A stretch of 64,000 nt of DNA from Bacillota bacterium (GCA_023390815.1 JAEWCC010000007.1:25315-89314), one strand, 5' to 3'. Positions 31,768-64,000 are shown, counted from the first letter of the stretch. Numbers and translations: made by a program. Notes: generated from the sequence alone by a model not told the origin.

Positions 31768-31778
31768 AACTGTTCTCC

Positions 31779-38535: not shown

Positions 38536-39780
38536 TCAATCCGGAAAATCGAAATGTGCATAGTTATCCTCGTGTTTATTGTTATATATTTGATCGTGAT
38601 GATGAGATGATTGCTTTTCTTTAAAAGCTCTAATTATTCTACTGTGGGGACCGGAGCGCCGGTAAATCTCTTTGATACAGTTCTGATACTCAAAAAGATT
38701 ATCACTATCCAAAATGTATTCTATCAACTTTTCATCCGCGCATGACGCGTCTGAGTCCGTTACTTTCATCAGCTGCTTGAGAGCTTTCATCCTTATTATC
38801 GCATCGTCGCATCTTCGCACAATGCATTCCAGCGCGGATCTATCGCCGATATTTTCTACTGCGTACTGCCTGACCCAAAAGGAAAAGTGCTCTCGAAGTA
38901 CCGCGGAAGCTTGTGCGGCTCCGTCCTTCATCCGTAATATAGCCGCTGCGCGTACACGCTCGCTCTCATCTATCGAGAAAATCTTTTCCAGTGCAGTCTG
39001 ATCGTTCAGCCTTGCTACGGCTGACTCACGATTACGCACGGATTTATCTGACGTGGCAGCCTTCAGCAACACATCATCAGCTATCAGCTTTTCAATTGCA
39101 GTCCGCCTGACAGCTTCATTTGCATCCCGTAACGCGATATGCGCCAGCGTTAATTGATCCTTCAGCTGCTCTGTTGCTGTTTTACGGACGTTGTTGTCTC
39201 TATCATTTAAGGCAATATCACCCAAGAACGGCTGGTCATCCAACCTTTCAACGGCTGCCATTCGTACGCCAGCATCCCTGTCTTTAGCGGCCCTGGCCAG
39301 TTCGGTCTGGTTCGTCAATCGCCTAACAGCTCTGCTATGGACAGTCGCGCTCGTGTCGTATATGGCTATATTCTCCAATGCAGTTTGTACGGTCACTCTT
39401 TCCACCGCCTCGCTGCGGACAGACGCGTCATCACTAAATCGGGCAATGCATTCCAGCGCACTCTGCTCCGATATCTGCTTAACAGCACTCACGCGCAGAG
39501 TAAATATTACATTCTCAGCCATCGCAATGTTGGTGAGGAGTTTATCGTCATTAATTTTATGAAGGGCAGCCATTCTGGTTTCTATCCGAAATTTGTTTTC
39601 GCGAACCAACCAATACAAGCGCCTTTCATCTCGTATACCGGCTATTGCGACGTCCACCGCATGGCAATGGGGACAGTTCAGGGCAACTTCATATAATATT
39701 TTTTCGTCTTTGATCCCCTGGATAGCCGTAAGAGCCTTTGTTTCATCTGCGTTCATCCATTTTGGTTTAAACAGCCCCAT
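38536..39780 (-). CDS. MGLF / HEAT-like repeat / HxD-tail family protein (member 1)
   Basis: MGLFKPKWMNADETKALTAIQGIKDEKILYEVAL. About 8 VRxxAxxRLxDQxxLxxIA repeats of ~26 aa. Tail SSHHHDQIYNNKHEDNYAHFDFPD. RBS AAGGAGAGGG. Confidence 0.8.
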   Translation of the reverse strand: MGLFKPKWMNADETKALTAIQGIKDEKILYEVALNCPHCHAVDVAIAGIRDERRLYWLVRENKFRIETRMAALHKINDDKLLTNIAMAENVIFTLRVSAVKQISEQSALECIARFSDDASVRSEAVERVTVQTALENIAIYDTSATVHSRAVRRLTNQTELARAAKDRDAGVRMAAVERLDDQPFLGDIALNDRDNNVRKTATEQLKDQLTLAHIALRDANEAVRRTAIEKLIADDVLLKAATSDKSVRNRESAVARLNDQTALEKIFSIDESERVRAAAILRMKDGAAQASAVLREHFSFWVRQYAVENIGDRSALECIVRRCDDAIIRMKALKQLMKVTDSDASCADEKLIEYILDSDNLFEYQNCIKEIYRRSGPHSRIIRAFKEKQSSHHHDQIYNNKHEDNYAHFDFPD

Positions 39781-39855
39781 ATCCCTCTCCTTATCCGTCT
39801 TGATACCTCAATACTGTGCTTAAAAGCTCCCCTACGGATGACCTGAATTCAGATT

Positions 39856-40872
39856 TTATTGAGCTGCTATAAATTCAATCGCCTTTTTTACCAAAGATTC
39901 AATATCGCCGGCATCAATGCCCTCATCGATATAAACACTGTTATCACGATCTTCGGAAGATACAATACTGTCGGGCGGATCGCTGCCATATGCCGTACCC
40001 ACGCTCTTTATCAACGTCATGTCTTCTGCGGTGTAGACGCCAACGCTGGCTGACTGCCTGTATGCGGTTATATTTTCGCCGCCATCCATTGGATAAATAC
40101 CTTTGAATATGAGTTTAAAATCGATTACTATCAGATATTCTATCTCGTTTGGAGAAGACGCAAGACGATCTTCGAGCAGATGGGAATAGCGCAGTGATAT
40201 CCCGTTTCTTCTGGCGTCGTTATCTAATGCCAGTAAGTCCTCATCAGTGTATCTGATATATACTGCCGCTTTACCGTCCGGAAATTTCCCGCATTCCGAA
40301 AGCCATGTACCATCGGCATCCGATATACAGTCGAACGGGTCATATTTTACGGTTTCCGAATCCGGTACATCTTTCATATAATCGGAAAGGAACATTCTGT
40401 AGTACTCCCATGCGTTTATTGCGGGAATCTCGTTGTGTTGCGCCAATACATAATAAAGATGCCTGCAAAGGTCCTGTTTTGTAATACTGCTGTCCTTATT
40501 GGAAAAGTATCGTTCGGCTTTTACACGAAAAGTTTCAGGGTCGTTTTGATACAAAAGAGCGCTTATCAGATCCCACGATTGAGCGCTGTCCTTAATAATC
40601 CCCGCCCTGCCAAAATCGTTCATAGCGCTTTCCAGCGAATAATCCAGCGGCGTTGTGCGTTTAATCTCGTAAAGAGCGGAGTCGTAACACTGATATGCGT
40701 TTCCAATATCGTTGCATAAGAACGCCGCAGCAGCAGACACCGCGACCAACAAAAACGCAAGTATGATGCTTTTCCTGCCCTTTTTCTTAATTGCTCTCAC
40801 AATCCCAAGTACAAGGAAAAACAGGCACGAAGCAAGCGCTGCAAATCCGATGACATTATAAAAGTCTTTCAT
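39856..40872 (-). CDS. Membrane protein of unknown function (two N-terminal TM helices)
   Basis: VIGFAALASCLFFLVLGIV and IILAFLLVAVSAAAAFL, followed by a ~270-aa soluble domain. RBS GGGGGA. Confidence 0.6.
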   Translation of the reverse strand: MKDFYNVIGFAALASCLFFLVLGIVRAIKKKGRKSIILAFLLVAVSAAAAFLCNDIGNAYQCYDSALYEIKRTTPLDYSLESAMNDFGRAGIIKDSAQSWDLISALLYQNDPETFRVKAERYFSNKDSSITKQDLCRHLYYVLAQHNEIPAINAWEYYRMFLSDYMKDVPDSETVKYDPFDCISDADGTWLSECGKFPDGKAAVYIRYTDEDLLALDNDARRNGISLRYSHLLEDRLASSPNEIEYLIVIDFKLIFKGIYPMDGGENITAYRQSASVGVYTAEDMTLIKSVGTAYGSDPPDSIVSSEDRDNSVYIDEGIDAGDIESLVKKAIEFIAAQ

Positions 40873-40926
40873 ATACGTCCCCCTGCATACTTAATCTTTG
40901 GTTCGGCGCTCCTCGCTTGGCTCCGG

Positions 40927-41494: not shown

Positions 41495-41641
41495 ATTCGT
41501 TCTCCTGATTTACTGTTTTCCCAACCGTCTCTACTGGCTGTTGGTCGTCACCTCAGCGGCATCAAACAGGCGGCACAGGTAAGGCATCCTCTTTTTTTGT
41601 CGCTTTCTGTCTGAGTCACAGTGCTCACCATCGCGTTCAAG

Positions 41642-41875
41642 TCACACGTAATCTTCCGGCCCAAAGTCTGTCTCGATTACCGTTCCGGTATCCGAATAAT
41701 ACCGCTCTTTCTTGCCGCAGCGCTCACACCATGTGGTCGCTACCCTGCCCGAAGCAGCGTAAGACCCGTCATCATCGTCCTTGAAATCGTGTACTGTCTT
41801 GCCGCAAATTCTACATTCGCAATTACCGTCCAGGTACTCTATGCAGTTGTGATTCTTTTCCTTATCCTTGCTCAT
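41642..41875 (-). CDS. Small zinc-ribbon protein with family-type tail
   Basis: CxxxxxxCxCxxC...CxxC (CIEYLDGNCECRICG...WCERCG). Tail YYSDTGTVIETDFGPEDYV resembles the AYHSDTGIGLKF tails of 42843 and 44125. RBS GAGGAGG. Confidence 0.65.
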   Translation of the reverse strand: MSKDKEKNHNCIEYLDGNCECRICGKTVHDFKDDDDGSYAASGRVATTWCERCGKKERYYSDTGTVIETDFGPEDYV

Positions 41876-41906
41876 CGGAATACCTCCTCATATCTTTTTT
41901 ATCGAT

Positions 41907-42824
41907 CTATAGCTCCGTGCCCAGCATCATATCGGCATGGGGAATCCACTCTCCGCATAAAGGCGCGTCTCGGTACACATCCATGTGGATCTGCGCCTTC
42001 GTCAGCTTTTTTCTGACCATAGAAGATTTACCGTTTATCTGATAAATTGCTTTAAGTAGTCCATACACCTCAGGTATCCCGCCCAAAGCGTTTCCTCTTT
42101 GCAAAAGTCCGAATTTCGTATATATGATCAGCTTGTCGACCAGGGCATCGTCCGCGTACCGCCCCCATTCGCGCACATTCAGCTTTAAAAGCCGCTTAAT
42201 TGCATCGCTGTCCCGTTTATGACAGACATATTTTACGAGCCATTCCGGGTCCAGAAGGTTCACCGCAAATTCGCGCGCGCAGCCTTTCGCTTGTGACGCA
42301 ATATGAAACAGCGTTTCCTGCGAGCGTATCCGCTTCATACCTTGTCTGCAGATTACCGGATCATCTGTAGATATGAACAATTCCCCAAGCTTGCCTTCCC
42401 GCTCCGCTCTGGTTATGGCGAGCTGCCTTCTGGCACACGCCCGCACATCGGCGGACATTGCACGGTCAGCCACATCCTGCAGCCACCCCTCATCGCCGAG
42501 CCTTCGCGCGGCGTTCAGGGAAATGGAGTCGTATGGATCCCGGTCGTAAATCATGACCCCTGCCTCGGCCACCGCAGCGATGTACTGCGCTTCGCGTATC
42601 CGCGCAGCGGCAGCCATGCGGCTTTTTGGACTAAGCTCTTCGCTGAGCACAAGCTGCAACAGCAGCTTATCTTTTTTAATCCGCGATATTGCGGCCTGCT
42701 CAACGAGCGGATGTACACATGTCAGCGCGGCCTGATATAACGTATCCTCGTCCGTCAACTGATCGACAGCCGTAAGCGCTTTCATCTCATCTTTACTCAT
42801 CCACCTTGGTTTAAACAGCCCCAT
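41907..42824 (-). CDS. MGLF / HEAT-like repeat / HxD-tail family protein (member 2)
   Basis: MGLFKPRWMSKDEMKALTAVDQLTDEDTLYQAAL. Tail IHMDVYRDAPLCGEWIPHADMMLGTEL. RBS GGAGGGAG. Confidence 0.8.
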   Translation of the reverse strand: MGLFKPRWMSKDEMKALTAVDQLTDEDTLYQAALTCVHPLVEQAAISRIKKDKLLLQLVLSEELSPKSRMAAAARIREAQYIAAVAEAGVMIYDRDPYDSISLNAARRLGDEGWLQDVADRAMSADVRACARRQLAITRAEREGKLGELFISTDDPVICRQGMKRIRSQETLFHIASQAKGCAREFAVNLLDPEWLVKYVCHKRDSDAIKRLLKLNVREWGRYADDALVDKLIIYTKFGLLQRGNALGGIPEVYGLLKAIYQINGKSSMVRKKLTKAQIHMDVYRDAPLCGEWIPHADMMLGTEL

Positions 42825-42842
42825 ACTCCCTCCTCGTATTAT

Positions 42843-44051
42843 TCAATCACATGGGTTAAAGCCTTCATATTCGCGGAATTTTAGGCCGATGCCGGTGTCC
42901 GAATGGTAAGCCAGCTCATCGATGTGACCTCCGGTCCATTTGTATTCATCAACAGCAAGCGTGTCAAAAGTAACATGGCGTTCTTCGATCAGTCTGGATG
43001 CGTCGCGGCCTAAAACAGTCAATGCGAGCTTGTCGTGCTCAAATAAATCCATTAGCGCCTGCGCCGCCTTTTCCCGGATGTCGTAATCCGCATCTGACAG
43101 TTCGCCGTGAAGCCTGACCGCCTCCCTGTTGCATTCAGGCAGGCCTTCATAAGCGGCAATACGCACCCCTATGCTGCAATCATGAATGGCCGCATCACGC
43201 ATCCACTCCGTTTTATTGGGGAAATCTGAATTGACCAGTTTTTTTGCTGCCTCAGGACGCAGATACCAATCGGACGTGTTTTTGACTAAGTCCATCAGCA
43301 AATCAGGGTTGGATATTTGGTTTAACAAATTAATTCTATCATAAGTAATTTTTCCATAACGGAGCATCACATGCACAGCTTCCTCGTTGTGCCCGAGCCG
43401 TTTATAAAGATACTCCTTTTGGGAAAGCGTCAGTCTTTCGTCCTGTAGCTGCGTTTCTAGCAGTGCGATATCCGTGCAATTTTCCACTGCGGTAAACCAG
43501 TTCGTTTCCTGCGGATTCATCACATACCAGGCGATGATGCTTTGATTCTCCAGTTCAATTGCCGCATGCAATCTGTTCGAAGGCAAGGCATCCTCTCCGC
43601 AAACTGATTGCCGAAGCGCTTCATCATTCAGCCTCCGAAACGCCAGAACGCCCGCCTTTTTCCATTCGGCGGTTTTAGCCACCTGCGCTAGCAAAGTTTC
43701 ATCAGATAGCGTTTCCACCGCGGCAACGTAGAGATCCTTCTCGTTAATTGCCAAGCGGTACAGCAGAGACTGATTCATAGATTTTCTGATAGCTGCTTCC
43801 CGCGCCTTCGCGATATACGGGCCACCCGCAATGCTGTCGATGAATTCCGGGTCTGAAATAATCGTAACCGCGGCGCACTGGGTTGGAGGCCAGCCGGCTT
43901 TACAGGCGATCTCGCATAAGGCCTCCCGATCTCCTTTCAGCCGCTCTATTCCTATCTCCGCGAGCTTGTTGTCATGGGTTTTGGTTATCGTCTTTATGAG
44001 CCAGCGTCGGCTCTTAGTACGCCGCATCTTTCTGAGTTTACCAGATTCCAT
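42843..44051 (-). CDS. HEAT-like repeat / HxD-tail family protein, KLRKMRRTKSxRW N-terminal variant (member 3)
   Basis: Start moved to the ATG at 44051 (MESGKLRKMRRTKSRRW, RBS AAGGAGG), which removes the overlap with the upstream gene. Tail GGHIDELAYHSDTGIGLKFREYEGFNPCD. Confidence 0.75.
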   Translation of the reverse strand: MESGKLRKMRRTKSRRWLIKTITKTHDNKLAEIGIERLKGDREALCEIACKAGWPPTQCAAVTIISDPEFIDSIAGGPYIAKAREAAIRKSMNQSLLYRLAINEKDLYVAAVETLSDETLLAQVAKTAEWKKAGVLAFRRLNDEALRQSVCGEDALPSNRLHAAIELENQSIIAWYVMNPQETNWFTAVENCTDIALLETQLQDERLTLSQKEYLYKRLGHNEEAVHVMLRYGKITYDRINLLNQISNPDLLMDLVKNTSDWYLRPEAAKKLVNSDFPNKTEWMRDAAIHDCSIGVRIAAYEGLPECNREAVRLHGELSDADYDIREKAAQALMDLFEHDKLALTVLGRDASRLIEERHVTFDTLAVDEYKWTGGHIDELAYHSDTGIGLKFREYEGFNPCD

Positions 44052-44124: not shown

Positions 44125-45390
44125 TCACGTGTCAAAGCCTTCATATTCGCGAAATTTAAGGCCAATTCCAGTATCCGTATGGAAACCCGGTTCGTCAGCA
44201 TAAGTTCCGTTCCACATCACTTCATCAAGGTACGGCGATTCAGACGATTCTCGGGGCATTTCTATTCGCTTTAACGCGGCGCGGCCTAAAACTGTCAAAG
44301 CGAACCGATCCTGCTCGAAAATATCCATCAATTGATGCGCTGCGCTCACCCGGTCTGTGTAAAGAGAAGAGTCCAGATCGTTGTATAGCCTGACTGCATC
44401 TTTGCTGTACTCCGGCAGATACGCATATGCGGCAATGCGCACGCAGATATCAATATCGTGCAAAGCGGTATTTCGCAGCCATTCCATTAGGTCAGGAAAC
44501 TCCGATTTTACCAGCCGACTCAGCGCTTCTTTTCTGATCGTTGTATCCGTGTTGGTTTTAAATACTTCCATCAGCGCTTTGTAATCGCCAAGTTCAGCAG
44601 CTGCCCCAAGCCTGTTCTCTGGCTTCGCGTCTTCGCCGCATACAGAGCGCCGCAGCGTCTCATCTGTCAGCTTGTTGAATGCCAGTACACCCGACTTTTC
44701 CCATTCTGCGTTCTTGGCTATCTCTACCAGCAGTGCTTCATTGGCCAGTGTTTCTACTGCTTTTTCCAGCCGATTCAGCGTTTCTTGCCGCGTCTGTATC
44801 TCCGGAGTATTTTTAAATACTTCCACCAGCGTCTCGTAATCTCCAAGCTCGGCGGCAGCCTGAAACCTGTTCTCCGACTTTGCATCCTTGCCGCATACGG
44901 AACGCCGCAACGTCTCATCTGCCAGCTTGTTAAATGCCAGCACACCCGCCCTTTCCCATTCGGCGGTCTTGGCTACCTCTGCAAGAAATTCTTGATCGGT
45001 CAGCGTTTCTACCGCGGCTCCATATAATCGCTTATCATATATAGCCAGCTCGCGCAGCAGCGGTTGATTGACCGATTTCCGGATTGCCGCTTCCCGCACC
45101 CGAGGTTTATACTCCTTAATAGGCAAACTGCCGCACACCCCCCGGCGAACAGAGTCTTTTATCTCTGCGATTGCGTCGATGAGTTCCGGGCTTTGTATAT
45201 ACTGTATTGCGGCAATTGATCCAGCCGCCCATCTAGCTTCGCGCATGATCTCGCCGAGCGCCGCCTGATCACCGCTCAGCCGCGCCGCACCCAACGCTGC
45301 CAGCTCGTCATCGTTTGTTCTGATTACCGTCTTCTTAATCCAGCGCATGCTCTTCGTGCGCCGCATCTTTCTTAATTTCCAAGGCTGCAT
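44125..45390 (-). CDS. HEAT-like repeat / HxD-tail family protein, KLRKMRRTKSxRW N-terminal variant (member 4)
   Basis: MQPWKLRKMRRTKSMRW. Internal ~70-aa duplication (AKTAEWERAGVLAFNKLADETLRRSVCGKDAK... / AKNAEWEKSGVLAFNKLTDETLRRSVCGEDAK...). Tail GFHTDTGIGLKFREYEGFDT. Confidence 0.75.
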   Translation of the reverse strand: MQPWKLRKMRRTKSMRWIKKTVIRTNDDELAALGAARLSGDQAALGEIMREARWAAGSIAAIQYIQSPELIDAIAEIKDSVRRGVCGSLPIKEYKPRVREAAIRKSVNQPLLRELAIYDKRLYGAAVETLTDQEFLAEVAKTAEWERAGVLAFNKLADETLRRSVCGKDAKSENRFQAAAELGDYETLVEVFKNTPEIQTRQETLNRLEKAVETLANEALLVEIAKNAEWEKSGVLAFNKLTDETLRRSVCGEDAKPENRLGAAAELGDYKALMEVFKTNTDTTIRKEALSRLVKSEFPDLMEWLRNTALHDIDICVRIAAYAYLPEYSKDAVRLYNDLDSSLYTDRVSAAHQLMDIFEQDRFALTVLGRAALKRIEMPRESSESPYLDEVMWNGTYADEPGFHTDTGIGLKFREYEGFDT

Positions 45391-45424: not shown

Positions 45425-47623
45425 TCATTCAAATTCGATGGTTTCCTCCACCATTACATCGCAGCTTTTTGATGCACAAGAAGAATTGAAATCATGATGC
45501 AGGGAAACATTTCTGCCGCCAATTCCCTCAAGCTTCTCCCGGTAATGTTCCGACCTTCCATATGCATAGCGCAGAAAGGCTAAAGTTTCTTTAAACTTTT
45601 CCAGCTCTGTTCTGTGCAAAAGGTAATCAATCTGCATCTGCATGAACTCTATACCACCGTACCGGATACACACGTCTTTCTCGTCTTCACCTGTAAGCCC
45701 CGCAATAATTGCCGCAAAGCGCAGCGCTGCCTCCTCATCACCCTTCCGCAGATTAAGCGCTGCAGCCGCCACGATCTCATCCCGTTTACCGGCAAAAGCA
45801 TCGCTGCACAACAGCTTTCTCGCAAGTATGATACTTACGCTGTTGCGGCTGACCATGTCAAGCAATACTTCCCACCTTTTAAGCCGCCACGCGGCCGCGG
45901 CGTGCAAACTTAATTTCTTATCATCAAGCGCTATTTTTTCAATGAAATCCTGATCCTCAATACGTTCGATCGCAGCAGCACTCACAAGAAATGACTCGTC
46001 ATCTTCGTCGGCGAGTACATACGTTTTTAAAAAGTCCTGATCCGTAATGCGTTTAATCGCCGCAACTCGCACGCTTATCGATTCGTCATGAAGCACGGCT
46101 TCCTTGAGAGCATCCCCGTCTGCCTGCTCTAATGCCGCGATACGCATGGCCTCCAGCTTTTTATATGCCACGTAGTACACATCGCCTGTAGGCTTGGCCT
46201 CTCGAATAATCTCCTTAAGCGCTGCTTCTTCTTCAACCCTCTCCGCAGCCGCTTTGGAAAAACGATTGCGGCCCACCGCAACTTTAAGTAAAATGCTTGT
46301 GTCAGATATATAGTTCAATGCTTCGACGCCGATATATGTATCCAGTCCATCCGCAAGGCCCATGGCCTGATAGATGATGTCCTGATTGTGTATTCTGCTG
46401 AGCGCTGCTTCTACAAGTTGCTTATCATCTTCCGACTGCCTGAACTGCGTACGCTCCCAAACTACCTGCCCCAGCCGTTCATCCACCGTTAAACGGCTGA
46501 CCGCAGCCAGTCGTATCGGCTGCTGGTAACGGTATCTGTCACATGCCAGCTCCGCAAGCAGCGGCTGGCTGGTCAGACGCAGTACTGTTTTCTCGTCCAA
46601 CTCCCTCATATGACGCCGCGCGTACAGGTTTAAGTCGGACGGATCTGTAATCAGCGATACCGCTTTCTGGCGTGCCTTATGATACCGGGATTTGATTGCC
46701 ACATCCAAAAGCTGTTCTTTCGAAAGCGAGGCCGAAGTTGTATTTGCTGGTTTTTTTTCGCTGCCTTTTTTCTCAGCCGTCGCAGGCCGAAGCGCTTTGC
46801 TCAGGAGGTCCTCTGAAACGTCGTCGGGATTCATGGTAATAAACTGAATGATGTCGGCCTGCACTATTAGCCTATCCGCCGCTTCCTGCCGGATGACGGA
46901 TGAGCCGTTATGCAGAGCTATTTCAAGTAGTGTTGACTGATCGGTGATACGTTCGAGCGCCATCTGTCTCGCTTTGATAGCTTTTGCAGTGCGGACCGCT
47001 TCAAGCACCGACTCTGGTGCTGTAAGCCGCTGCACCAGTACTCCCGCGGATTCGCTCAGAGTAATACCTATATCGTCAATGGTTTCCAGTGTCTTTAATA
47101 TCGTTGTATCCGAAAACCGCCATATAAGCGCGTCCATCTCCTGCGCGGTGCACGAGAATAACCCCACGCAATGCAAAAGTACCATCGACATATAATTATC
47201 GTCTTTAACGCAGCGCTTCAGATATTCATTCCTTTCCTTAGGCTCGAGGGCTTTCAGAAACTTTGCAAATAAGGCCGGATCCGCCGTCAGATCCATTGCG
47301 GCGTTAAGCAGCGCCGTCACACGAGGCTCCCCCAAAGATGCTTCGTATTCCAGGCGCTGCAATATAACTGGAAACTCCTGATGGTTATCCGCAATGCGCA
47401 AAAGCGCAGCAGCTGCAACATGCGCACTGATACGTGATTCGCCAAGCGCCAGCTGCTCAAGCAGCAGTTCGTCTTTGATACGCGAAACGGCAAAAAACGC
47501 CACCATCTCATCATGCGCGCCTTTCGCCGCGCGCAGCAGCGCGCCATCGGATTTCAGCAAAGACACTGCGGCTAACGCCTTCTTAGTATCCTTTTTATGC
47601 CACTCATTTGAAAACAATCCCAT
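45425..47623 (-). CDS. MGLF / HEAT-like repeat / HxD-tail family protein (member 5, 732 aa)
   Basis: Start moved to the ATG at 47623 (MGLFSNEWHKKDTKKALAAV, RBS GGGAGG). Tail VSLHHDFNSSCASKSCDVMVEETIEFE. Confidence 0.75.
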   Translation of the reverse strand: MGLFSNEWHKKDTKKALAAVSLLKSDGALLRAAKGAHDEMVAFFAVSRIKDELLLEQLALGESRISAHVAAAALLRIADNHQEFPVILQRLEYEASLGEPRVTALLNAAMDLTADPALFAKFLKALEPKERNEYLKRCVKDDNYMSMVLLHCVGLFSCTAQEMDALIWRFSDTTILKTLETIDDIGITLSESAGVLVQRLTAPESVLEAVRTAKAIKARQMALERITDQSTLLEIALHNGSSVIRQEAADRLIVQADIIQFITMNPDDVSEDLLSKALRPATAEKKGSEKKPANTTSASLSKEQLLDVAIKSRYHKARQKAVSLITDPSDLNLYARRHMRELDEKTVLRLTSQPLLAELACDRYRYQQPIRLAAVSRLTVDERLGQVVWERTQFRQSEDDKQLVEAALSRIHNQDIIYQAMGLADGLDTYIGVEALNYISDTSILLKVAVGRNRFSKAAAERVEEEAALKEIIREAKPTGDVYYVAYKKLEAMRIAALEQADGDALKEAVLHDESISVRVAAIKRITDQDFLKTYVLADEDDESFLVSAAAIERIEDQDFIEKIALDDKKLSLHAAAAWRLKRWEVLLDMVSRNSVSIILARKLLCSDAFAGKRDEIVAAAALNLRKGDEEAALRFAAIIAGLTGEDEKDVCIRYGGIEFMQMQIDYLLHRTELEKFKETLAFLRYAYGRSEHYREKLEGIGGRNVSLHHDFNSSCASKSCDVMVEETIEFE

Positions 47624-56415: not shown

Positions 56416-57675
56416 TCATAGTGGCTCAATAAGCCCGTCCTTGTCCACATAATCACTATGACCGGCACAATTGCTGCTGATGGGTCCGTCGTTGTGGACA
56501 TCGCGAAACCTCTTTTTCTGGCGGTCGGCGTGCTGTGCGAACAGCTCCGGCAGCTCTGCATCGGAATAGAGCCAGCGCAACTGTACGGAGGCGTGCCAAT
56601 TTCCCTCCGATACCATTTCCTCTAGTAATTCAATCAGCGCGAAAGAGCACCGCTTCTCAAAGAGCTTGCGAATATTTATACCATCGCCGATGTGCTGCCG
56701 CACGAAACGCACGGCTTCATCCTCGCTGCCGCACATGGCAAGCCGTTGCATAATGATATCGCTGTGCTGCGGATATTCCGCCTCGCGTTTCCGCCACCAG
56801 CAAGTCGGCGCGTATTCTACTGGTATCCATGTGGCAATATGTTCACGTTTCAGACTGTCTTTTGGTAAATTTTCAAACAGCGCCATAAGCTCATTGGCCT
56901 TCATTTTTTTCATCGCGGCGGTTTCGACATCTACTACTGTCGTTTTGATAAATACGTCTTGTGCGTCGCTAGGATCAATACGATTGGCGGCTCCGCCACT
57001 TACATAGCTATCCATAAGGGCAATCTGTTTTAGAAGAGTTGGGTTTTTGATACGCTCATCCTCGATGCACTTGATCCACAGCTTTTGCATGCTCTTCTCG
57101 TCAGCGAATGAGAGGATCAATCTGCATAGCATATTCTCATCCGTTATCTGTTCGCCGCAGAGAGCACGCAGCTTCCCGTTTTCCGAAGCATCCATCGCAA
57201 TTTGCGCAAACAGCCTTTGGTCAGCCTCGCCCCAGTCGGATTGTTTAAGCTCCCCCAGGCGCTCCATCGTGGCACAACGCACATCTGCAGAAAGCGCGCT
57301 ATTCGCCACAATATGGGTAAGTACTCGGACGTCGCTCAGGTGTCTCACAGCTGCGCGTTTCCCGGAGTCGCTGGGGTGCTGTCGGACAAGCGCATACAGC
57401 AAGCTTGGGTCGGTCAGCCGTTTCAATACGATCCAGCCGAAGGCTTCCAATGGCGGTTCTTGCGTCAGTGCCATAAAGAACTGTGCAAGAAATTGCTGGT
57501 CATTAATACGTTCAATGCAAAGCTGACGCAAATGAACCTGATCGTCGGGGGACAGCCCGGAATGGGCCAAATCCGAAAGCAGTATTTCAATCAGCTTCTT
57601 CTCGTCGCGTATTCTGCCGATGGCCTTTTTTTGCTTACCCCAATTTGTCGTCATATAAGGCCTAATAATACCCAA
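56416..57675 (-). CDS. MGLF-like / HEAT-like repeat / HxD-tail family protein (member 8, divergent)
   Basis: TTG start with RBS AAGGAGGA: (M)GIIRPYMTTNWGKQKKAIGRIRDEKKLIEILL. Tail RDVHNDGPISSNCAGHSDYVDKDGLIEPL. Begins 17 nt after the rSAM stop. Confidence 0.7.
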   Translation of the reverse strand: MGIIRPYMTTNWGKQKKAIGRIRDEKKLIEILLSDLAHSGLSPDDQVHLRQLCIERINDQQFLAQFFMALTQEPPLEAFGWIVLKRLTDPSLLYALVRQHPSDSGKRAAVRHLSDVRVLTHIVANSALSADVRCATMERLGELKQSDWGEADQRLFAQIAMDASENGKLRALCGEQITDENMLCRLILSFADEKSMQKLWIKCIEDERIKNPTLLKQIALMDSYVSGGAANRIDPSDAQDVFIKTTVVDVETAAMKKMKANELMALFENLPKDSLKREHIATWIPVEYAPTCWWRKREAEYPQHSDIIMQRLAMCGSEDEAVRFVRQHIGDGINIRKLFEKRCSFALIELLEEMVSEGNWHASVQLRWLYSDAELPELFAQHADRQKKRFRDVHNDGPISSNCAGHSDYVDKDGLIEPL

Positions 57676-57692
57676 TATTATCCTCCTTGCCT

Positions 57693-59897
57693 TTAATTGA
57701 GCATACCCGCCAGATGCTCAAACGCAGCTTTCCGAGCCGTACAGTCAAAATCACCGTTGTCGATGTTCTGTTTGTCTCTTGACCATGCCTTACACATACC
57801 GCCGCAGAGGTATCGAACTTCGCATTCTCTGCATTTTTCATTTATGTCCACATCGTGCCGGGTTAGTTCACGGAAAGTTACGCCCTCTACAACATCCTCG
57901 AGCCTGTCTTTAAGCAGGTTGCCCAGCCTCTTATCCGCACCGCACCACGCATAGCACGGATAAGCGCCGCCGTCCGGCTCCACGTAAAGGTTCTGCCCAA
58001 GGCCGCAGGAGAAGCGCGGCCTGAAAGGCCGTTTTTTCTCATTCTCGTCTATGCAGAGAAAATCCGAGTCCTTCGGTGCGCTTTCTGCTCGGCCTAACGG
58101 TAGAATTGGTCTGAATCGCACATTTTCGATCCCAAGACGTTCGCACAATTCATCAATCGATTTCCCTTCTTTTCCTTCGCGCTGCGTTTTCGTCAGCGTC
58201 GCGCAGACGCCTACCCTGCGGACAAAGCCCAATTCCTTAATTCGTTCAAGGTTATCTATCGTCCGTGCGTAACGCCCTGCGCCGCGTTGCGCATCGTGGC
58301 TCGCTTCGTCGCCGTCTACGCTGACCACAATTTCAGGAAAGGCCTCGCATACAGCTTTCAGGCGCTCATCGGAAATCAGAAAGCCAAGCGACGTGCGCAG
58401 TATCAGCCGCATACCTTTCAGCAAAATACGCCTGATTCCCGCTAGCATTGCGTCGATTTCGGTATGCACTAGTGGCTCTCCGCCCGTCACCACCACCGCG
58501 CGAAAAAACGACTTCTGCGCGTCTTTGATAATATTAAGTATCGCGTTTGCAGGCATCTCGCTCATTTCACTCTCGCCGCCCAGCGCATAGCAATGTCCGC
58601 AGCGCAGCGGGCAATCGAACGTGACGTGCAGATACAGCTTGTTGAGTTCATTGACTCGGTTTTTCTTGTAACGCTCAAGTGCAGTACTCGCACCATACGG
58701 ATAACGGCCCCACTTGGATGCCTGTCTCATACGCTGTTCGTTGATTTCCAGATCGTAGGGATGCGGCTGGTCGCCTGCCATTTGTAGCAGCGGAGCATTC
58801 TCAGGAGTTATGCGTTTCGTCATAATGTAACCCATCTCAAGTGCCATATCGCGCGATATCTCATCGAATACCGCGCGATACGCCTCGCAGTAAGGATCCT
58901 TGTTTGTATTCGATGCGAACATGTTGTAAAGGCATCCGCCGCTGCAATACGGGAAGTGTACGCACGTCCCGCATTCCGCATGCGCGCCTTCCTGCTTTTC
59001 CAGTAATTTGCGATACGCTGCGCTTTCAATAATCTGTGCTTCCGTCAGGTCGTCCATCACGTTCCCCAGCACAAATTCAGCATGACCGCAGAAGCGCTGG
59101 CATGAATATACGCTGCCATCTGGCGCGATCGCCGCGAAACGACCGAGGCACGGGAAAAAAGTGCACGTATGTCCCTCTCCGTCAAAGCAGCCTTTCGCCA
59201 TGGAGTCCAGCGTCGATACCCTTGTCTGCCGCATATTGTTTTTATACGCTGCCAGAGTGTCCAGCATAATTTTGGTCATGTCCGCTACGGCCACAGTATA
59301 CGCGTCAGTTTCGCGGCCAAGTGCGCGTACCGCGCCGTGTAAAGCATATGGAATACCACTGCGCAAACTGCCTGCGTAATGCCGGAATACGCGCTCCGCC
59401 TCTCCCGCGGATTCGTGAGTAAATGTGCAGATGCGGCTGGCCTCCACGCCATATTGCAGCAGCACCGACCGCCCGCGCTCGTTGGCGGCGTAGTACCCTT
59501 TTCCACGTTGTACATCACACATCGCCTCATCGCCGTCTATGCTCGTGCCCACTGCTATTTGGTAACCTCGGATGAGCTGTGCCATATGCTCATCCATCGC
59601 GATAAGGTTGCTCTGCATGGAAAGGCGCAGCCTACGCCCGAAGCGTTGCTGCAGCTTTGGTAATATGTATTCGTAAAACTCCGGTCCGGCCAGCAGCGGT
59701 TCGCCGCCGTGAAATGTGACGCGTACGTTTCCCTCTTCAGGCGCGATCCGTTCCATAAAATCAAGAGCTTTATCTGCCACCTCACGCGTCATGGTTTCGC
59801 CCCGGTTGGGGCCGAAGCAATAGGTACACGAGGCCTGGCAGGCCGCTGTGGGCACGAGCATGAAGTTGGAGGGGCAAAAAGCGGATGTATGTTCCAT
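57693..59897 (-). CDS. Fused double radical-SAM / SPASM-domain enzyme (two complete maturase-like units)
   Basis: Start moved to the ATG at 59897 (MEHTSAFCPSN, RBS AAAGGAGAC). Unit 1: CQASCTYC plus SPASM Cys array (CTFFPC, YSCQRFCGH, CGTCVHFPYCSGGCLYN, YCEAY). Unit 2: CPLRCGHC plus SPASM Cys array (SCGLGQ, YPCYAWCG, CRECEVRYLCGGMCKAW, DC). Confidence 0.85.
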   Translation of the reverse strand: MEHTSAFCPSNFMLVPTAACQASCTYCFGPNRGETMTREVADKALDFMERIAPEEGNVRVTFHGGEPLLAGPEFYEYILPKLQQRFGRRLRLSMQSNLIAMDEHMAQLIRGYQIAVGTSIDGDEAMCDVQRGKGYYAANERGRSVLLQYGVEASRICTFTHESAGEAERVFRHYAGSLRSGIPYALHGAVRALGRETDAYTVAVADMTKIMLDTLAAYKNNMRQTRVSTLDSMAKGCFDGEGHTCTFFPCLGRFAAIAPDGSVYSCQRFCGHAEFVLGNVMDDLTEAQIIESAAYRKLLEKQEGAHAECGTCVHFPYCSGGCLYNMFASNTNKDPYCEAYRAVFDEISRDMALEMGYIMTKRITPENAPLLQMAGDQPHPYDLEINEQRMRQASKWGRYPYGASTALERYKKNRVNELNKLYLHVTFDCPLRCGHCYALGGESEMSEMPANAILNIIKDAQKSFFRAVVVTGGEPLVHTEIDAMLAGIRRILLKGMRLILRTSLGFLISDERLKAVCEAFPEIVVSVDGDEASHDAQRGAGRYARTIDNLERIKELGFVRRVGVCATLTKTQREGKEGKSIDELCERLGIENVRFRPILPLGRAESAPKDSDFLCIDENEKKRPFRPRFSCGLGQNLYVEPDGGAYPCYAWCGADKRLGNLLKDRLEDVVEGVTFRELTRHDVDINEKCRECEVRYLCGGMCKAWSRDKQNIDNGDFDCTARKAAFEHLAGMLN

Positions 59898-59907
59898 TTT
59901 GTCTCCT

Positions 59908-60736
59908 TTATTCAATCGTAAAAAACTCGGGCGGTATCATACTGTCGGAATGTCCGAAATCCACATGGTCGCCAAGGTCCTGATAGTGGGACTCCGAATC
60001 GTTATGCTCTTCTTCACGAATCACGTGTCCGTTCAGCCGCGTAATATGTTCCTGAAACCTCCCGCTCCGGTATATATGTTGCAGTAAAGTGCATGCGTCA
60101 ACGGATTTGCGTTCAAAGCAGTGATCGGTCAGCTACTGGAACGCGGCTTCGTCTATCTCTGTGATCCAATCCGCTTCCCCATGAGCGCTTTCCTGAACAA
60201 GTCGGCAGCCCACATACCTTGAGAGTGTTTGCTCTTCCTCCAGAAAACCGGCAAGCAGCCCCGGAGACGAAAGTTTTTGTATAGCGGCTCGCCGTACCTC
60301 AGCGTCCCTATCCTCCCGGCATATGCGAAGCAGCAAATCCGCACCTTTCCGGACAGTATGGCCTGAATACATCCCTGTTTTGCTGCGCGATCTGCGCGAG
60401 AGCCACCGGATCGTTGATCCTGTCCATCGCTGTTCACCGCACGATGGACTCCCCGGCCTGTGCAATCGGCACCAGCAGTTTGTTCGGGACTTGCAGCCGC
60501 TTCATCATCCCGGTCAGCGCCATGGATACGCTTCTGGACAGCGTTCCCACCGCCAGGCCGAGCTTCAGCAACATATCCTCGTCCACAATATGGCCTATCG
60601 TCTCGGCCTTTGCGGTATCGCAGGTCAGCTCGTCAGGAGCAATCAGCTTAAGCCTTCTGGCTTTTCATTCGCGATATGCCCTCAGTGCTTTGTCGGGATT
60701 ATCTCTATTTTCCCAAACGGGTCTGAACAGTCTATG
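59908..60736 (-). pseudogene. Decayed member of the MGLF / HEAT-like / HxD-tail family
   Basis: Own translation: degenerate start (CAT AGA CTG TTC = xRLFRPVWENRDNPDKALRAYRE), in-frame TGA at 60665-60667, second TGA near 60435, frameshift near 60375, in-frame TAG at 60133-60135, then a family tail ...LLQHIYRSGRFQEHITRLNGHVIREEEHNDSESHYQDLGDHVDFGHSDSMIPPEFFTIE*. Confidence 0.7.
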
Positions 60737-60739
60737 CCC

Positions 60740-63412
60740 CTACATCTCATTCGTCAGATTGAAATATGTATACCCCTCGTCCATGTGGCACCATTCGTCC
60801 CGGTATGCTTTGCCTTGCACGTCCACATGGGATATGGCTTTTTGTTCGAGCCCTTCTATGGCTCCGGAAAAACGACCCGCTGCGTAGACCCGCTTCAGCG
60901 CCGTCGCCACGGGTCGGTAGTCGAATTGCTCGTCCTTTTCGTTTTCCGCAATGATGGAGATCATCTTCACGACCGCTACGTCATTCAGCCGCCATGCCCA
61001 ACGCTTGTCAAGTTCGTCCAAACGCGAACAGATTTCAGGCGTACAATAGCGCGGGATATCAGAAATCACGGTCTCAAAAAGCGCCTTCGCGTCGGTAACG
61101 CGCCGCAACGCCTCTTTCCGTACGTTCAGCGCCTTCGCCTCCCGGGCGATTATCAGCAGCTTATCCGGATCGGTGATTCGCTTCATATCCATATCCGCTT
61201 TTTCAAGGTTCAATGCTATGTCCATCAGCGTATCCTCGTCAGCAATGCGCCGGACGGCTTCCTCCCTCATCAGCAGCGGCATATACGTATCAAGCGCAAG
61301 CTTTTTTAACTCTTCCGGGCTGGTGATCGCATCGAGTGCTGCCATCTGTTCCCTAAGCTCCTTTTCGTAATATGGGATGCGGTCTTCCGCATTCGTTTCC
61401 GGCACTACCGCGGGGACATGTTCTTCAGGTTTCGGCAACAAGTCAAAGTAGATGTAATCCCCGTCCTGATGGCACCATTTATCGCGATATTCCTTTCCGG
61501 TATAGTCGAAGTGCGCCACGGCTTTTCCATGCAATCCCTCAATGGCCGCTTTTGCACGTCCCTGCCGGTATATGCTTTTTAGCGCAGCCGCATAATGTCG
61601 GTAGTCGAACTGCTCATCCTTTTTGTTGTTCGCGATAACGCAGGTGAGCGTTTTAACCGCCGCGTCGTCAAGCTGCTGCGCCCAATCCGCATCCAACTCG
61701 CTCAGGCGCTCGCAGATCTCGGGCTTAAAGCTATTTTGCACATTGGCGCTTACTAATTTAAAAAGCGCTTTCGCGTCATGAATACGCTTTAGCGCCTGTT
61801 TGCGTATCCGCAGGTCTTTTGCGTCGTTGGCGACAAGCAGTAACATATCCGGGTTTTTAATCGTGTGCAGGTTGAAATCCTGTTCCTCCGGCATCTCGAT
61901 CTTCAGCGCAACGTCGAGCAGCGTATATTCGTCCGTGATTCGACGGGCTGCCGCCGCGCGTATTCTCGGCGCAACATCGCCGTCCAGTGCGATTTCCTTT
62001 AATGCCAACTGGCTTGTGACCGCCTGCAGATCCTGCAGCGCGTCGTTTACGTCCCTATTGTTTTGACGTCTGAATATCACCGGATCGATATCCGGCTTTA
62101 TATCGTCAAGTTCCAGATAGGTAAAGCCTCCGTCCTCGTGGCAGCCCTTATCACGGTTTACCTTCCCGCTGGAATCGCTGTGAGATACGGCAGTCCCTTT
62201 AAGCGCGGCGATATGCTGCACCGCATGTCCTTTCCCGTACATGCGCCTCAGCGCGGCTGCAATATGAGTATAATCGAACCGCTGGTCCGCCGTATTCTCC
62301 GCCAGTATCCCTGCCAAACCCTCCACGGTACGGTTACCGGCTTTTTGTACCCAGTCTTTATCGATTTCGTCGAGTCGCTCGAAAAATTTTCGGTCTCTGT
62401 AGCGCTTTGGGTTGTTGTCAAACAGCGAAAGCATCGTATCCAGTCTGCCAATGCGCAGCAGTGCGTTCTCGCTGATCTCGCTGTCCTTAGCGCCATGGTG
62501 GACGCGCAGTAGCGCCTCGTCCCCCGACACATATTTCAGTGCATCCGAACACAGAAAACTCGTTTGGTATTCGGATGGAAACCGTTCCGGGCCGTCGTGC
62601 ATGGCGATGCGCTCAAATACCCCAAAATCCCGGATGCGGCTTTTGGCCTGAACACGCGCCTCCTCCGGCCCGCTCAGCGCCATCAACGCCAGCTGCCGAT
62701 CGTCTTCGAGGTCTTCCGGGCTTACCAGCTTTGTACATTCACGCAGTATGTATTCATTCAACGTTTGGTCCATGATTACCAGTGCAAGTGCCGGGTCACC
62801 CGCTTTCTTCACTGCACCGGTGCAAATGTGTGCCTTCTGCGCAGTGTGTGCCAGCTTGACCGCACGGCCGGTATCCGTCATATTGGCTATTGCAGCCAGA
62901 CGGATATCTTCGTCATCCGCCGAGTCGAACGCTTCATTCAGGTATTGCGGATCATTGACCCTCTCCAGCGCGATCATGCGTACTCCTTGATCCAGGTCTT
63001 TCGCAGCCAGCCACTTGAGTGTCGCCTGATCTGCCAGATGCGCCGCTGCCTTGCGGCGCAGCCCGTACCCCCCCGCGTACCGAGCTACGGCGGCCAAACA
63101 GCTTTGCAACTTCGCGTCACTTTCGATCGCCCGCTTATCCATCTTTTCAAGGCCGTCCCACACGCGGCAAAGCGGCTCCACTGCCCTGAGGCGTTTGATC
63201 GCTGCTTCGCGCGGGACGCTTAATTTTGGCGTGTTTATCACATCTAGAATTAGCTGGCAGTCCCAAATCCGTTTTACCGCTTCCTCGCGAATATAATGAT
63301 TGGATGCATTCAATGCCGCGTCGCGAAGTGTTGCTTCCTTTTGAACTTTGTTCAGCGCCGCCAATGCATTTTTAAAGTTCTCCGACATCCATCCCGGCTT
63401 GAAAAGGCCCAT
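60740..63412 (-). CDS. MGLF / HEAT-like repeat family protein with three tandem tail-bearing modules (member 9, 890 aa)
   Basis: Start moved to the ATG at 63412 (MGLFKPGWMSENFKNALAALNKV, RBS AAGGAGG). Three copies of ...H.D..GK.(Y/N)RD..CH.D....Y..L: VSHSDSSGKVNRDKGCHEDGGFTYLEL, VAHFDYTGKEYRDKWCHQDGDYIYFDL, ISHVDVQGKAYRDEWCHMDEGYTYFNL. Confidence 0.8.
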   Translation of the reverse strand: MGLFKPGWMSENFKNALAALNKVQKEATLRDAALNASNHYIREEAVKRIWDCQLILDVINTPKLSVPREAAIKRLRAVEPLCRVWDGLEKMDKRAIESDAKLQSCLAAVARYAGGYGLRRKAAAHLADQATLKWLAAKDLDQGVRMIALERVNDPQYLNEAFDSADDEDIRLAAIANMTDTGRAVKLAHTAQKAHICTGAVKKAGDPALALVIMDQTLNEYILRECTKLVSPEDLEDDRQLALMALSGPEEARVQAKSRIRDFGVFERIAMHDGPERFPSEYQTSFLCSDALKYVSGDEALLRVHHGAKDSEISENALLRIGRLDTMLSLFDNNPKRYRDRKFFERLDEIDKDWVQKAGNRTVEGLAGILAENTADQRFDYTHIAAALRRMYGKGHAVQHIAALKGTAVSHSDSSGKVNRDKGCHEDGGFTYLELDDIKPDIDPVIFRRQNNRDVNDALQDLQAVTSQLALKEIALDGDVAPRIRAAAARRITDEYTLLDVALKIEMPEEQDFNLHTIKNPDMLLLVANDAKDLRIRKQALKRIHDAKALFKLVSANVQNSFKPEICERLSELDADWAQQLDDAAVKTLTCVIANNKKDEQFDYRHYAAALKSIYRQGRAKAAIEGLHGKAVAHFDYTGKEYRDKWCHQDGDYIYFDLLPKPEEHVPAVVPETNAEDRIPYYEKELREQMAALDAITSPEELKKLALDTYMPLLMREEAVRRIADEDTLMDIALNLEKADMDMKRITDPDKLLIIAREAKALNVRKEALRRVTDAKALFETVISDIPRYCTPEICSRLDELDKRWAWRLNDVAVVKMISIIAENEKDEQFDYRPVATALKRVYAAGRFSGAIEGLEQKAISHVDVQGKAYRDEWCHMDEGYTYFNLTNEM

Positions 63413-63498
63413 TGTATCCTCCTTGCTGGTTTCCGCCTGTTTTCCCTTCACCGCGCGCAACTCTTTCCGACCACTCCGCTGTTTATTCAGTTTTGTTC

Positions 63499-64000
63499 TC
63501 AGTCCAGCGTAAAGTAAGTATAACCTTCATCGTTATGGCACGACGCACTACGGTACTCCTTGCCATGATGGTCGCTGTGAGCAATCGGTTTGTTCATTAA
63601 ACCTTTAATCTCCGTTTGAATACGTCCCCTTTGGTATACCCGTTTCAGCACCGAACCAATATACCGCATGTCGAATCTCTCATCCGCCCTGTTACACGAA
63701 ACAGTTTTAACGAGCGCTTTTACCACGTCGTCATCCAGCCGCAGCGGCCAGTCTGCATCCAACTCGTCCAGCCGTGTGCATATTTCCGGCGTGAAGCTGC
63801 GCGGCATATCTGCTCTGACCACTGTATAAAGTATTTCTACATCCGTTATGCGCCGGAGGGCTTCCTCCCGCACCTCGCGCGCATTGGCTCCTTTAGCCAG
63901 CGCCAGCAGTATACGCTCATCGGCAATTCGGCTGACGGCCTGTACGCTGAGCTTATTGGGCATATTCGGATTTAAAGCGACAGCCCTCAAAAATTCGGGG
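63499..64000 (-). CDS. HEAT-like repeat / HxD-tail family protein (member 10), N-terminus outside window
   Basis: The frame is open to nt 64000 (the track M is a TTG; upstream codons are not stops). Ends IAHSDHHGKEYRSASCHNDEGYTYFTLD, the same module as in 60740..63412. Confidence 0.75.
   Translation of the reverse strand, partial: PEFLRAVALNPNMPNKLSVQAVSRIADERILLALAKGANAREVREEALRRITDVEILYTVVRADMPRSFTPEICTRLDELDADWPLRLDDDVVKALVKTVSCNRADERFDMRYIGSVLKRVYQRGRIQTEIKGLMNKPIAHSDHHGKEYRSASCHNDEGYTYFTLD

Follow-up and report, generated by a model that had tools for sequence, protein, structure and literature searches.

Introduction

The closest analogue of the system described here is the HXS antiphage system, in which HxsA, a protein with H-x-S repeats, is matured by the radical SAM (S-adenosylmethionine) enzymes HxsB and HxsC and blocks the entry of phage DNA (PMC13128918). 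In a further group of radical SAM/SPASM enzymes, the triceptide synthases, an aromatic residue is linked to the beta-carbon of the residue two positions on, and His-X-X cyclophanes are made by HaaB (HAA), YhhB (HNR), and HtkB (HTK) (PMC11499958). Here, we analyze 64,000 nucleotides from a Bacillota bacterium (GCA_023390815.1, JAEWCC010000007.1:25315-89314), the whole of which is referred to as the window, and in it an array of minus-strand paralogues that encode HEAT-like proteins with short tails of H-x-D motifs (x, any residue) and that share their locus with a gene for a tandem radical SAM/SPASM enzyme. As judged from sequence comparisons, the array is probably the substrate set of a two-component protein-maturation system made up of the H-x-D-tailed HEAT proteins and the tandem enzyme.

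Among other enzymes of this superfamily, PapB forms the Cys-X3-Asp links of ranthipeptides and QhpD installs Cys-Asp/Glu links in the protein subunit QhpC; in both cases Asp is the radical acceptor and Cys its partner. The enzymes anSME, PapB, DynA, QhpD, and YhhB take a hydrogen from a side-chain carbon, usually the beta-carbon, and all of them except anSME then couple that carbon to sulfur, an aromatic carbon, or nitrogen. The family to which the enzyme of the window belongs, TIGR04083, is catalogued yet uncharacterised. In a literature search, no paper on TIGR04083 was found, none linking HEAT or PBS-lyase proteins, H-x-D motifs, and radical SAM/SPASM enzymes, and no H-x-D cyclophane.

Results

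Pairing of enzyme and tail across genomes

A pattern scan for the enzyme, with one genome per species, yielded 23 loci with a full-length or contig-truncated homologue, and four loci with only single-domain, weakly related radical SAM genes were used as controls. A neighbouring gene was scored as tailed when it lay on the same strand within 4 kb and two or more H-x-D motifs fell within the final 70 residues of its product. Such a neighbour was present at 19 of the 23 enzyme loci, three more (L011, L015, and L019; L numbers are our handles for loci and contigs) had a neighbour with a tail of the protein E type (Table 1), that is, with a single H-x-D and Cys, and the last (L022), a contig of 3.7 kb, was too short to judge. 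When the 23 loci and L009 were counted by open reading frame (ORF), H-x-D tails occurred in 34/103 ORFs near the enzyme versus 5/126 elsewhere in these loci, and in 0/54 ORFs of the controls. When three extra loci were looked up from the enzyme, in Lamprocystis, on a Thermoguttaceae-like contig, and on a contig of 3.7 Mb, a HEAT protein with H-x-D was found directly downstream in every case. In total, 26 of 27 homologue loci have, next to the enzyme gene, one or more genes for a HEAT-type protein whose terminal loop holds 1-7 H-x-D motifs; the contig of the 27th is too short to judge. Besides the Lokiarchaeon 'Ca. Harpocratesius repetitus', the loci span about ten bacterial phyla, the bacterial host groups of the 23 scanned loci being Christensenellales, Oscillospiraceae, Lachnospiraceae, Armatimonadota, Coriobacteriales, Desulfovibrio, Flexilinea, Prevotellaceae, and Coatesbacteria.

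The pairing was also recovered from the opposite direction: four of five tail proteins found by homology of their bodies (P0009, P0225, P0215, and P0265) adjoin a tandem enzyme, at loci L009, L042, L044, and L045, and L044 is another array, with five paralogues. Clustering of the neighbours at 20 diverse loci left the enzyme and the HEAT/tail proteins as the only two families in common, and no protease, transporter, or other third gene common to these 20 loci was found. On the strength of these sequence data, the H-x-D tails are likely substrates of the co-encoded enzyme. A tblastn search of plasmid and phage collections with the enzyme gave no match at E<=1e-30, and by this search the system does not appear to be typically plasmid- or phage-borne.

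Two features of single loci are recorded here. At L009, the tandem radical SAM gene (9600-12600) has a GC content of 0.50-0.54 in an AT-rich contig (0.30-0.36 on either side); the two genes for H-x-D-tailed HEAT proteins just upstream of it are AT-rich, and three further radical SAM genes lie upstream. A chimeric assembly was considered and rejected, as both flanks are AT-rich and the gene is thus an embedded island and not an end-join; the contrast suggests a recent horizontal replacement of the enzyme gene alone. In two unrelated contigs, a gene for an AAA_28-family ATPase of about 200 residues follows a gene for an H-x-D-tailed HEAT protein (L039, 8363-8977; L041, 3294-3872), and in one sub-lineage of the system this ATPase may act as an accessory component.

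The H-x-D tail

In 39 tails, 105 H-x-D motifs were counted, compared with 17.7±3.8 in composition-preserving shuffles (maximum 30 among 2000), which amounts to an enrichment of about sixfold. The counts for HD (16), H..D (13), D.H (19), and H.S (6) were low beside this number, and neither the other His-Asp spacings nor H-x-S nor H-x-E was enriched over the shuffles in these tails. Single tails hold from 1 to 7 motifs with a strict i,i+2 spacing. Both His and Asp of all three motifs of protein F are invariant across 8 homologues, and in alignments of F with G and of the protein I modules with J the two residues are again invariant and the middle residue is variable. The tails contain 7.5% His versus 1.6% in the body and are also enriched in Asp and Cys, with a Cys 0-4 residues ahead of an H-x-D in 23 of 42 tails.

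The plan of the tail is shared across phyla: the last helix is followed by the 1-7 H-x-D motifs, often as S-D-C or C-x(0-4)-H-x-D, and then by a closing stretch of hydrophobic residues, for example G-I-G-x-D-F-P...D-F, F-P-P-Y-P-F, V-H-F-D-L, or Y-T-Y-F-x-L. The tail of protein C, ending in G-I-G-x-x-F, matches tails in Armatimonadota, Coatesbacteria, and Lamprocystis. In AlphaFold models, the closing segment is a short strand paired with a strand located just before the first H-x-D, and the loop of 18-25 residues between the paired strands is of low confidence. In protein F, this region (residues 344-370) has a predicted local distance difference test score (pLDDT) below 50 with short beta strands on both sides, and in module 3 of protein I a low-pLDDT H-x-D loop likewise lies between two short beta strands. 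The H-x-D loop is modelled, at low confidence, as exposed.

The HEAT-like body

Only protein A reaches the Pfam HEAT_2 threshold (29.1 bits versus a cut-off of 27.7), with sub-threshold matches in C, D, F, and G and none in B, E, H, I, and J. Scans of the paralogues against NCBIfam and against PADLOC-DB 2.0 gave no match, and public sources label the partner proteins 'hypothetical'. With an alignment of 8 homologues as input, protein F is modelled by AlphaFold with confidence as an alpha-solenoid (pLDDT 86), and the models of F and of module 3 of protein I, both with a pLDDT of about 86, consist of helical pairs throughout. Foldseek matches for the solenoid body were alphaRep, HEAT, ARM, importin, AP-complex, and CpcE/F structures. 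The paralogues show neither a signal peptide nor a membrane segment, and the putative substrates are taken as cytoplasmic alpha-solenoid (HEAT-like) proteins.

A phmmer search with protein A against 1.84 billion representatives gave 3,699 relatives at E<=1e-3, nearly all of them related by the repeat body only, and H-x-D-rich tails were present in 7 of the best 146 relatives (about 5%); the MGLFxPxWM start was found in tail-less relatives too. Body and N-terminal cap are thus shared by a large family of HEAT-like proteins with 26-residue repeats, and the tail marks a small special subset of it. The partners that adjoin the enzyme in Armatimonadota, the Lokiarchaeon, Flexilinea, and Coatesbacteria are canonical HEAT/PBS-lyase repeat proteins (up to 480 bits for HEAT_2 and up to 409 bits for HEAT_PBS), from which it follows that the solenoid body is part of the conserved design.

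The tandem radical SAM/SPASM enzyme

The enzyme encoded at 57693-59897 consists of two complete radical SAM/SPASM modules in one chain (two Pfam Radical_SAM and two SPASM matches). Its gene lies between the pseudogene and gene H, starting 10 nt past the stop of the former and ending 17 nt ahead of the start of the latter, with an AGGAG site 5 nt upstream of the ATG. The N half meets NCBIfam TIGR04083 with 341.3 bits over residues 18-362 (cut-off 300), a model that is described as 'peptide-modifying radical SAM enzyme' and is a hypothetical equivalog without assigned reaction or substrate in the libraries searched. Homologues from the Lokiarchaeon (L027, 325 bits) and from Armatimonadota (L020, 363 bits) also pass this model, and the same name is given by NCBI to full-length homologues of the enzyme. 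The C half is a generic radical SAM/SPASM module whose best sub-threshold matches are the thioether formers StsB, PapB, and SCIFF, with StsB highest at 94 bits.

Invariant cysteines are C20/C24/C27, C429/C433/C436, and at least eight SPASM cysteines in each half, and in 107 of 117 homologues of full length neither half has lost the CX3CX2C motif. As the first of these Fe-S motifs starts at about residue 17 (the median among full-length homologues), an N-terminal domain for leader recognition is absent. Among solved structures, that of anSME is the nearest (4k37; 95 bits over residues 11-345). With PADLOC-DB 2.0, the enzyme gave generic viperin-type radical SAM matches only and no specific defence model.

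The array and its genes

The 25-kb array (38.5-64 kb) comprises ten minus-strand paralogue ORFs and one pseudogene (Table 1), and in an all-against-all BLASTP comparison the paralogues are joined at pairwise identities of 21-45%. The closest pairs are F/G (6e-112), C/D (1e-105), and I/J (1e-45); the remaining pairs mostly gave values from 1e-20 to 5e-3, and a few, such as C/E, are joined only via other members. A first-pass annotation of the window had described these genes as a co-directional array of paralogues, and the family itself is borne out. The array is not one of paralogues only, since it also holds the radical SAM gene, two lipoprotein genes, a split RCC1-repeat gene, and a gene for a zinc-ribbon membrane protein; the radical SAM gene, which is the only partner conserved across phyla, had been overlooked in that annotation. 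Genes I, pseudogene, enzyme, and H follow each other in this order and are tightly coupled.

Table 1. Genes of the array and H-x-D loops of protein I, with positions in the window
Feature	Position	Strand	Description
Paralogue A	38536..39780	-	414 aa; start MGLFKPKWM; 26-residue HEAT-like repeats; tail HHD..HED..HFD
Paralogue B	41907..42824	-	305 aa; tail HMD..C..HAD
Paralogue C	42843..44051	-	402 aa; start KLRKMRRTKS; tail HID..HSD-TGIGLKFREYEGF
Paralogue D	44125..45390	-	421 aa; tail HTD-TGIGLKFREYEGF, one H-x-D
Paralogue E	45425..47623	-	732 aa; tail HHD..C..C, one H-x-D and Cys
Paralogue F	47869..48981	-	370 aa; tail HDD..C..HED..HFD
Paralogue G	49081..50439	-	452 aa; tail HSD..C.HID..HFD
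Paralogue H	56416..57675	-	419 aa; TTG start; tail HAD..HND..C..HSD
Tandem radical SAM/SPASM enzyme	57693..59897	-	734 aa from ATG at 59897; predicted maturase of H-x-D loops
Pseudogene, eleventh paralogue	59908..60736	-	Tail HND..HVD..HSD still legible
Paralogue I	60740..63412	-	890 aa; three tandem modules of about 190 aa, each closing with H-x-D..C-H-x-D..YxYFxL
Protein I, internal H-x-D loop 1	62093..62182	-	Residues 411-440, SHSD..CHED..FTYLEL
Protein I, internal H-x-D loop 2	61424..61513	-	Residues 634-663, AHFD..CHQD..YIYFDL
Protein I, C-terminal H-x-D loop 3	60743..60829	-	Residues 862-890, SHVD..CHMD..YTYFNL
Paralogue J, C-terminal 166 residues	63499..64000	-	471 aa on parent contig; tail HSD..C-HND..YTYFTL

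Further details of the first-pass annotation are taken up here. The start MGLF-x-P-x-WM, which had been called near-invariant, is present in A, B, G, and I but deviates in E (MGLFSNEW), F (MGLFTPWM), H (MGIIRPYM), and the completed J (MRLFQPEWM), and the two members reported with a KLRKMRRTKSxRW start are C and D. Repeats of about 26 residues are recovered in A at spacings of 25, 26, and 52. The His-rich tail is likewise real: at least two H-x-D in the last 70 residues occur in 8 of 38 non-overlapping ORFs of the window, all of them family members, and D and E have one H-x-D apiece. Neither the N-terminal motif nor the tail, both given as unassignable, matches any Pfam, NCBIfam, or PADLOC family, and no full-length match of the proteins to a characterised family was obtained. 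Each copy had been credited with its own AGGAGG-type ribosome-binding site, and an AGGAGG-like site lies 5-10 nt upstream of every paralogue start. Compared with orthologues in a related Bacillota genome, the ratio of non-synonymous to synonymous substitution rates (dN/dS) is 0.15-0.29 for the paralogues and 0.09 for the enzyme, at identities of 58-88% for the scaffolds and 93% for the enzyme; the array members are therefore functional genes and, as had been supposed, resemble with their ribosome-binding sites an operon and not repeat debris. In a scan of 44-64 kb, terminator-like sites were as numerous as in shuffles and promoter-like sites only slightly more so (32 versus 21.3±4.7), which gives no information on operon boundaries.

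The region 59908-60736, which had been read as a remnant, is a true pseudogene: it is frameshifted, being made up of two pieces in frames -1 and -3, and internally deleted, as residues 145-209 (about 65) of the 354-aa orthologue in L017 are missing in tblastn. Its counterpart is intact in related genomes, with 354 aa in L017 and 354-379 aa across L017 and L014. For protein I, a BLAST comparison with itself gave no off-diagonal match, and local pairwise alignment with shuffle controls was used instead, by which the modules are 33-51% identical to each other (z 40-70 versus shuffles). On the parent contig the array extends beyond position 64000, where inspection for more copies completed J to 471 aa and revealed two smaller related genes further on.

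Paralogue G, whole in the window, is called as pieces of 48 and 386 aa in L002, L003, and L004, which come from three other samples, so single paralogues decay in some strains. The RCC1-repeat gene (55294-56290; start MGFFDILKK) is split into the ORFs 55646-56290 and 55294-55752; as it is a single intact gene of 331 aa in the related contigs L002 and L005, the copy of the window is probably frameshifted. The gene 51341-52363 encodes a helical protein of 340 aa with the start MGLFNHFSYKD, without H-x-D tail and without BLAST similarity to the family, which may be a degenerate or unrelated carrier of the MGLF start. Directly downstream of paralogue B, the gene 41642-41875 encodes a Cys-rich (zinc-ribbon-like) protein of 77 aa; a gene of the same size is in the same position in L001, L005, and L006, and small Cys-rich genes resembling it are also located beyond 64000 (L037, 5972-7413). 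Past the end of the window (L037, 1-8500) and upstream of J, genes for a protein of 217 aa ending in RHNDFAPHCCEEFDLEME and for a HEAT-like protein of 175 aa were found, together with two paralogous HTH_31 regulators, a NUDIX hydrolase, a fusion of a Ser/Thr kinase with leucine-rich repeats, and a NikA-like relaxosome gene.

Elsewhere in the window, 28000-34000 is an island of low GC content (0.33-0.44 versus about 0.5 around it) with genes for a Mob_Pre relaxase (28660-29856), for a protein of 316 aa of no known kind (30817-31767), and for a Lon-lid AAA+ ATPase (31779-33122) with weak PADLOC matches to DolB and PDC-M37B; the island may be a mobilisable element that carries a pair of candidate defence genes. 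Three giant proteins, secreted or at the surface, are encoded at 13156-19920 (2254 aa), 22065-28064 (1999 aa), and 34078-38385 (1435 aa), the last with PEGA, Big_2, and fibronectin-type-III matches, whereas for the other two the domains come from reading the sequence. By eye, the genes at 567-5618 resemble those for a bacterial-microcompartment shell and an aldehyde dehydrogenase. These genes and the giant proteins appear unrelated to the array.

Discussion

Proposed chemistry and role

As to the chemistry and the cellular role of the system, we infer the following. The tandem enzyme would act directly on the loop of the full-length HEAT protein, taking a hydrogen from the beta-carbon of Asp and so causing an intramolecular cross-link. 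Candidate products are a three-residue ring from His to Asp (i,i+2) of the triceptide type and, alternatively or in addition, a thioether from Cys to Asp as with PapB/QhpD; each half of the enzyme may install a mark of its own, and the modified HEAT protein would remain intact in the cell. Since the precedent enzymes couple side-chain carbons in this manner, a His-Asp ring and/or a Cys-Asp thioether are the most likely products, although the His-Asp ring taken specifically is a tentative and somewhat unlikely choice. Formation of formylglycine as in sulfatases was rejected because the motif C/S-x-P/A-x-R is absent from all 42 tails.

Taken more widely, the data would fit a widespread, undescribed system of post-translational modification in which TIGR04083 enzymes cross-link H-x-D loops of full-length HEAT proteins in bacteria and Asgard archaea, giving either a new cross-link or cofactor or an enzyme-armed family for intracellular recognition, with arrays of 5-13 scaffolds in Christensenellales-like Bacillota of gut and rumen; this larger picture is put forward with some reserve, as a possibility that falls a little short of being probable. 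A role in defence or conflict is more speculative and rather unlikely on present analogies. The idea comes from the HXS analogy, from the diversified expansion of the scaffolds, from their faster evolution compared with the enzyme, and from island-like neighbours of the system loci, among which are relaxase, recombinase, integrase, transposase, and toxin-antitoxin genes. By analogy, at least 13 diverged scaffolds per enzyme in such an island-like setting suggest an HXS-like role in recognition or defence.

Several observations weigh against the proposed cross-linking of H-x-D loops. The residues His, Asp, and Cys are classic metal ligands, and the model of the H-x-D loop, which is of low confidence and derives from alignments of 4-8 sequences, is compatible with a folded metal site. 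Five of the 42 tails are without Cys, and tails with a single H-x-D exist (D, E, L011, L015, L019, L038, and L040). The fifth of the tail-first cases (L041), on a contig of 4 kb, has no adjacent enzyme on that contig. All characterised maturase families score far below their cut-offs (bits/cut-off: PapB 194/340, anSME 196/349, DynA 171/450, YhhB 113/445, HxsB 137/370, QhpD 122/453, GrrM 96/310, FxsB 92/370, AmcB 108/425), and for this reason the chemistry is not readable from homology. The case for defence in particular is circumstantial, as PADLOC gave nothing specific and no homologue was detected in the phage or plasmid collections.

The main alternative is that the H-x-D/Cys loop binds a metal (Zn, Fe, or Ni) as an intrinsic site, in which case the enzyme would act elsewhere or the HEAT proteins would serve it as scaffold or chaperone. 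The abundance of His, Asp, and Cys in the tails is what such a site would show, a beta-hairpin closes off the modelled loop in the manner of small metal knuckles, and a HEAT-repeat metalloenzyme, deoxyhypusine hydroxylase, was among the Foldseek fold matches. However, the variable number of motifs per tail, from one to seven at strict i,i+2 spacing, fits repeated enzyme-recognition motifs better than a fixed set of ligands, and one enzyme for up to 13 paralogues, with three loops in one protein, displays a multiplicity that is typical of substrates and not of chaperones. As, moreover, no alternative small-peptide substrate is conserved beside the enzyme across the loci, we regard a metal site as quite unlikely.

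Modification of the H-x-D loops, once granted, could still belong to a classical pathway for RiPPs (ribosomally made peptides with post-translational modifications), in which the HEAT body would be a giant 'leader' and the tail would be cross-linked, cleaved, and exported as a bioactive peptide. By its kind the enzyme is one of the radical SAM/SPASM peptide maturases, its NCBI family name reads 'peptide-modifying', and RiPP clusters commonly have several precursor paralogues for one maturase. Yet a secreted RiPP is very unlikely, because neither the 20 diverse loci nor the array of the window has a conserved protease or transporter and because loops are also internal, two of them in protein I; the 'leaders' have diverged, measure 300-1000 residues, and are throughout their length under purifying selection, and the enzyme is without an N-terminal recognition domain. 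The view of the first-pass annotation, by contrast, would dispense with maturation: the array would be an expanded polymorphic family for immunity or host interaction, and the radical SAM gene an unrelated insertion. The array is indeed large, diverged, and co-directional, and mobile genes are near, namely the Mob_Pre relaxase of the window, the NikA-like gene past 64000, and, in relatives, a serine recombinase where the array ends. That view had been drawn from copy number and nothing else, no toxin, secretion system, or signal peptide is present, and the pairing of enzyme and tail recurs in about ten bacterial phyla and the Lokiarchaeon, including loci with a single HEAT gene, so that the enzyme is not an incidental insertion; this makes the view most improbable.

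With the tails read as substrates of the tandem enzyme, TIGR04083, a family that is widespread, including Asgard archaea, and has no known substrate, would obtain a candidate in the H-x-D loops of HEAT proteins, and as a candidate substrate is thereby named, the chemistry of the enzyme becomes directly testable. Besides sulfatases, QhpC, and HxsA, few full-length proteins are known to be modified by radical SAM enzymes, and a fourth broad case, if true, would indicate that maturation of whole proteins is common. A His-Asp ring or a Cys-Asp thioether on a repeat scaffold would then be a new natural protein cross-link, of interest for engineering since alphaRep HEAT-like scaffolds already serve as designed binders. 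In this gut-type Bacillota genome, the presence of one enzyme for at least 13 diverged scaffolds suggests a repertoire for recognition, perhaps in phage defence or another conflict, and the system would, if this were true, be a candidate new system of innate immunity or conflict and a cytoplasmic parallel to HXS.

Comparison with known systems

The likeness to HXS lies in a sizeable protein with repeated motifs of His-x-small-polar type (PMC13128918), in two adjoining radical SAM modules, here fused in one polypeptide, and in the matured protein itself being the effector, a role that is by analogy proposed here as well. The motif, however, is H-x-D and not H-x-S (105 versus 6 in the 39 tails), and it is carried by a cytoplasmic HEAT solenoid, whereas the HXS protein is periplasmic and binds peptidoglycan. 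HxsD is absent and no third gene is conserved across loci, the HxsB model gives 137 bits against a cut-off of 370 (62 bits for the C half), and HXS is found to 99.7% in Pseudomonadota, whereas the system described here occurs in Bacillota, Chloroflexota, Armatimonadota, Planctomycetota, and others as well as in an Asgard archaeon. The DNA-binding mechanism proposed for the basic HxS repeats is unlikely here because the tails are acidic.

Triceptide precursors often contain multiple aromatic-X-X motifs, and H-x-D has the same i,i+2 geometry and is encoded beside a radical SAM/SPASM enzyme, but known triceptide substrates are short leader-dependent peptides and the YhhB, GrrM/OscB, FxsB, and AmcB models all remain below cut-off. 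In the case of PapB and QhpD, the Cys near H-x-D in 23/42 tails and the modification by QhpD of a protein subunit, not of a secreted peptide, are points of likeness; in contrast, the scores are low (PapB 194/340, QhpD 122/453), the Cys-Asp spacing in the tails is variable, and 5/42 tails are Cys-free. The enzyme anSME, the nearest in structure, is likewise a radical SAM/SPASM protein without a leader-recognition domain and modifies a full-length protein, but its target motif C/S-x-P/A-x-R is present in 0/42 tails and its model gives 196 bits versus 349. With repeat proteins of the PBS-lyase type (CpcE/CpcF, NblB, and the alphaRep designs), the HEAT proteins share the alpha-solenoid fold, whereas the copies of the window use a shorter repeat of 26 residues that barely reaches Pfam thresholds, no bilin-lyase context is present, and the H-x-D tail is unique to the enzyme-linked subset. 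Whereas the N half of the enzyme passes TIGR04083, its HEAT/H-x-D partner is without an NCBIfam or Pfam model. What sets the system apart from known pairs of radical SAM/SPASM maturase and substrate is the motif, the scaffold, the fusion of the enzyme in tandem, and the wide spread over bacteria and archaea.

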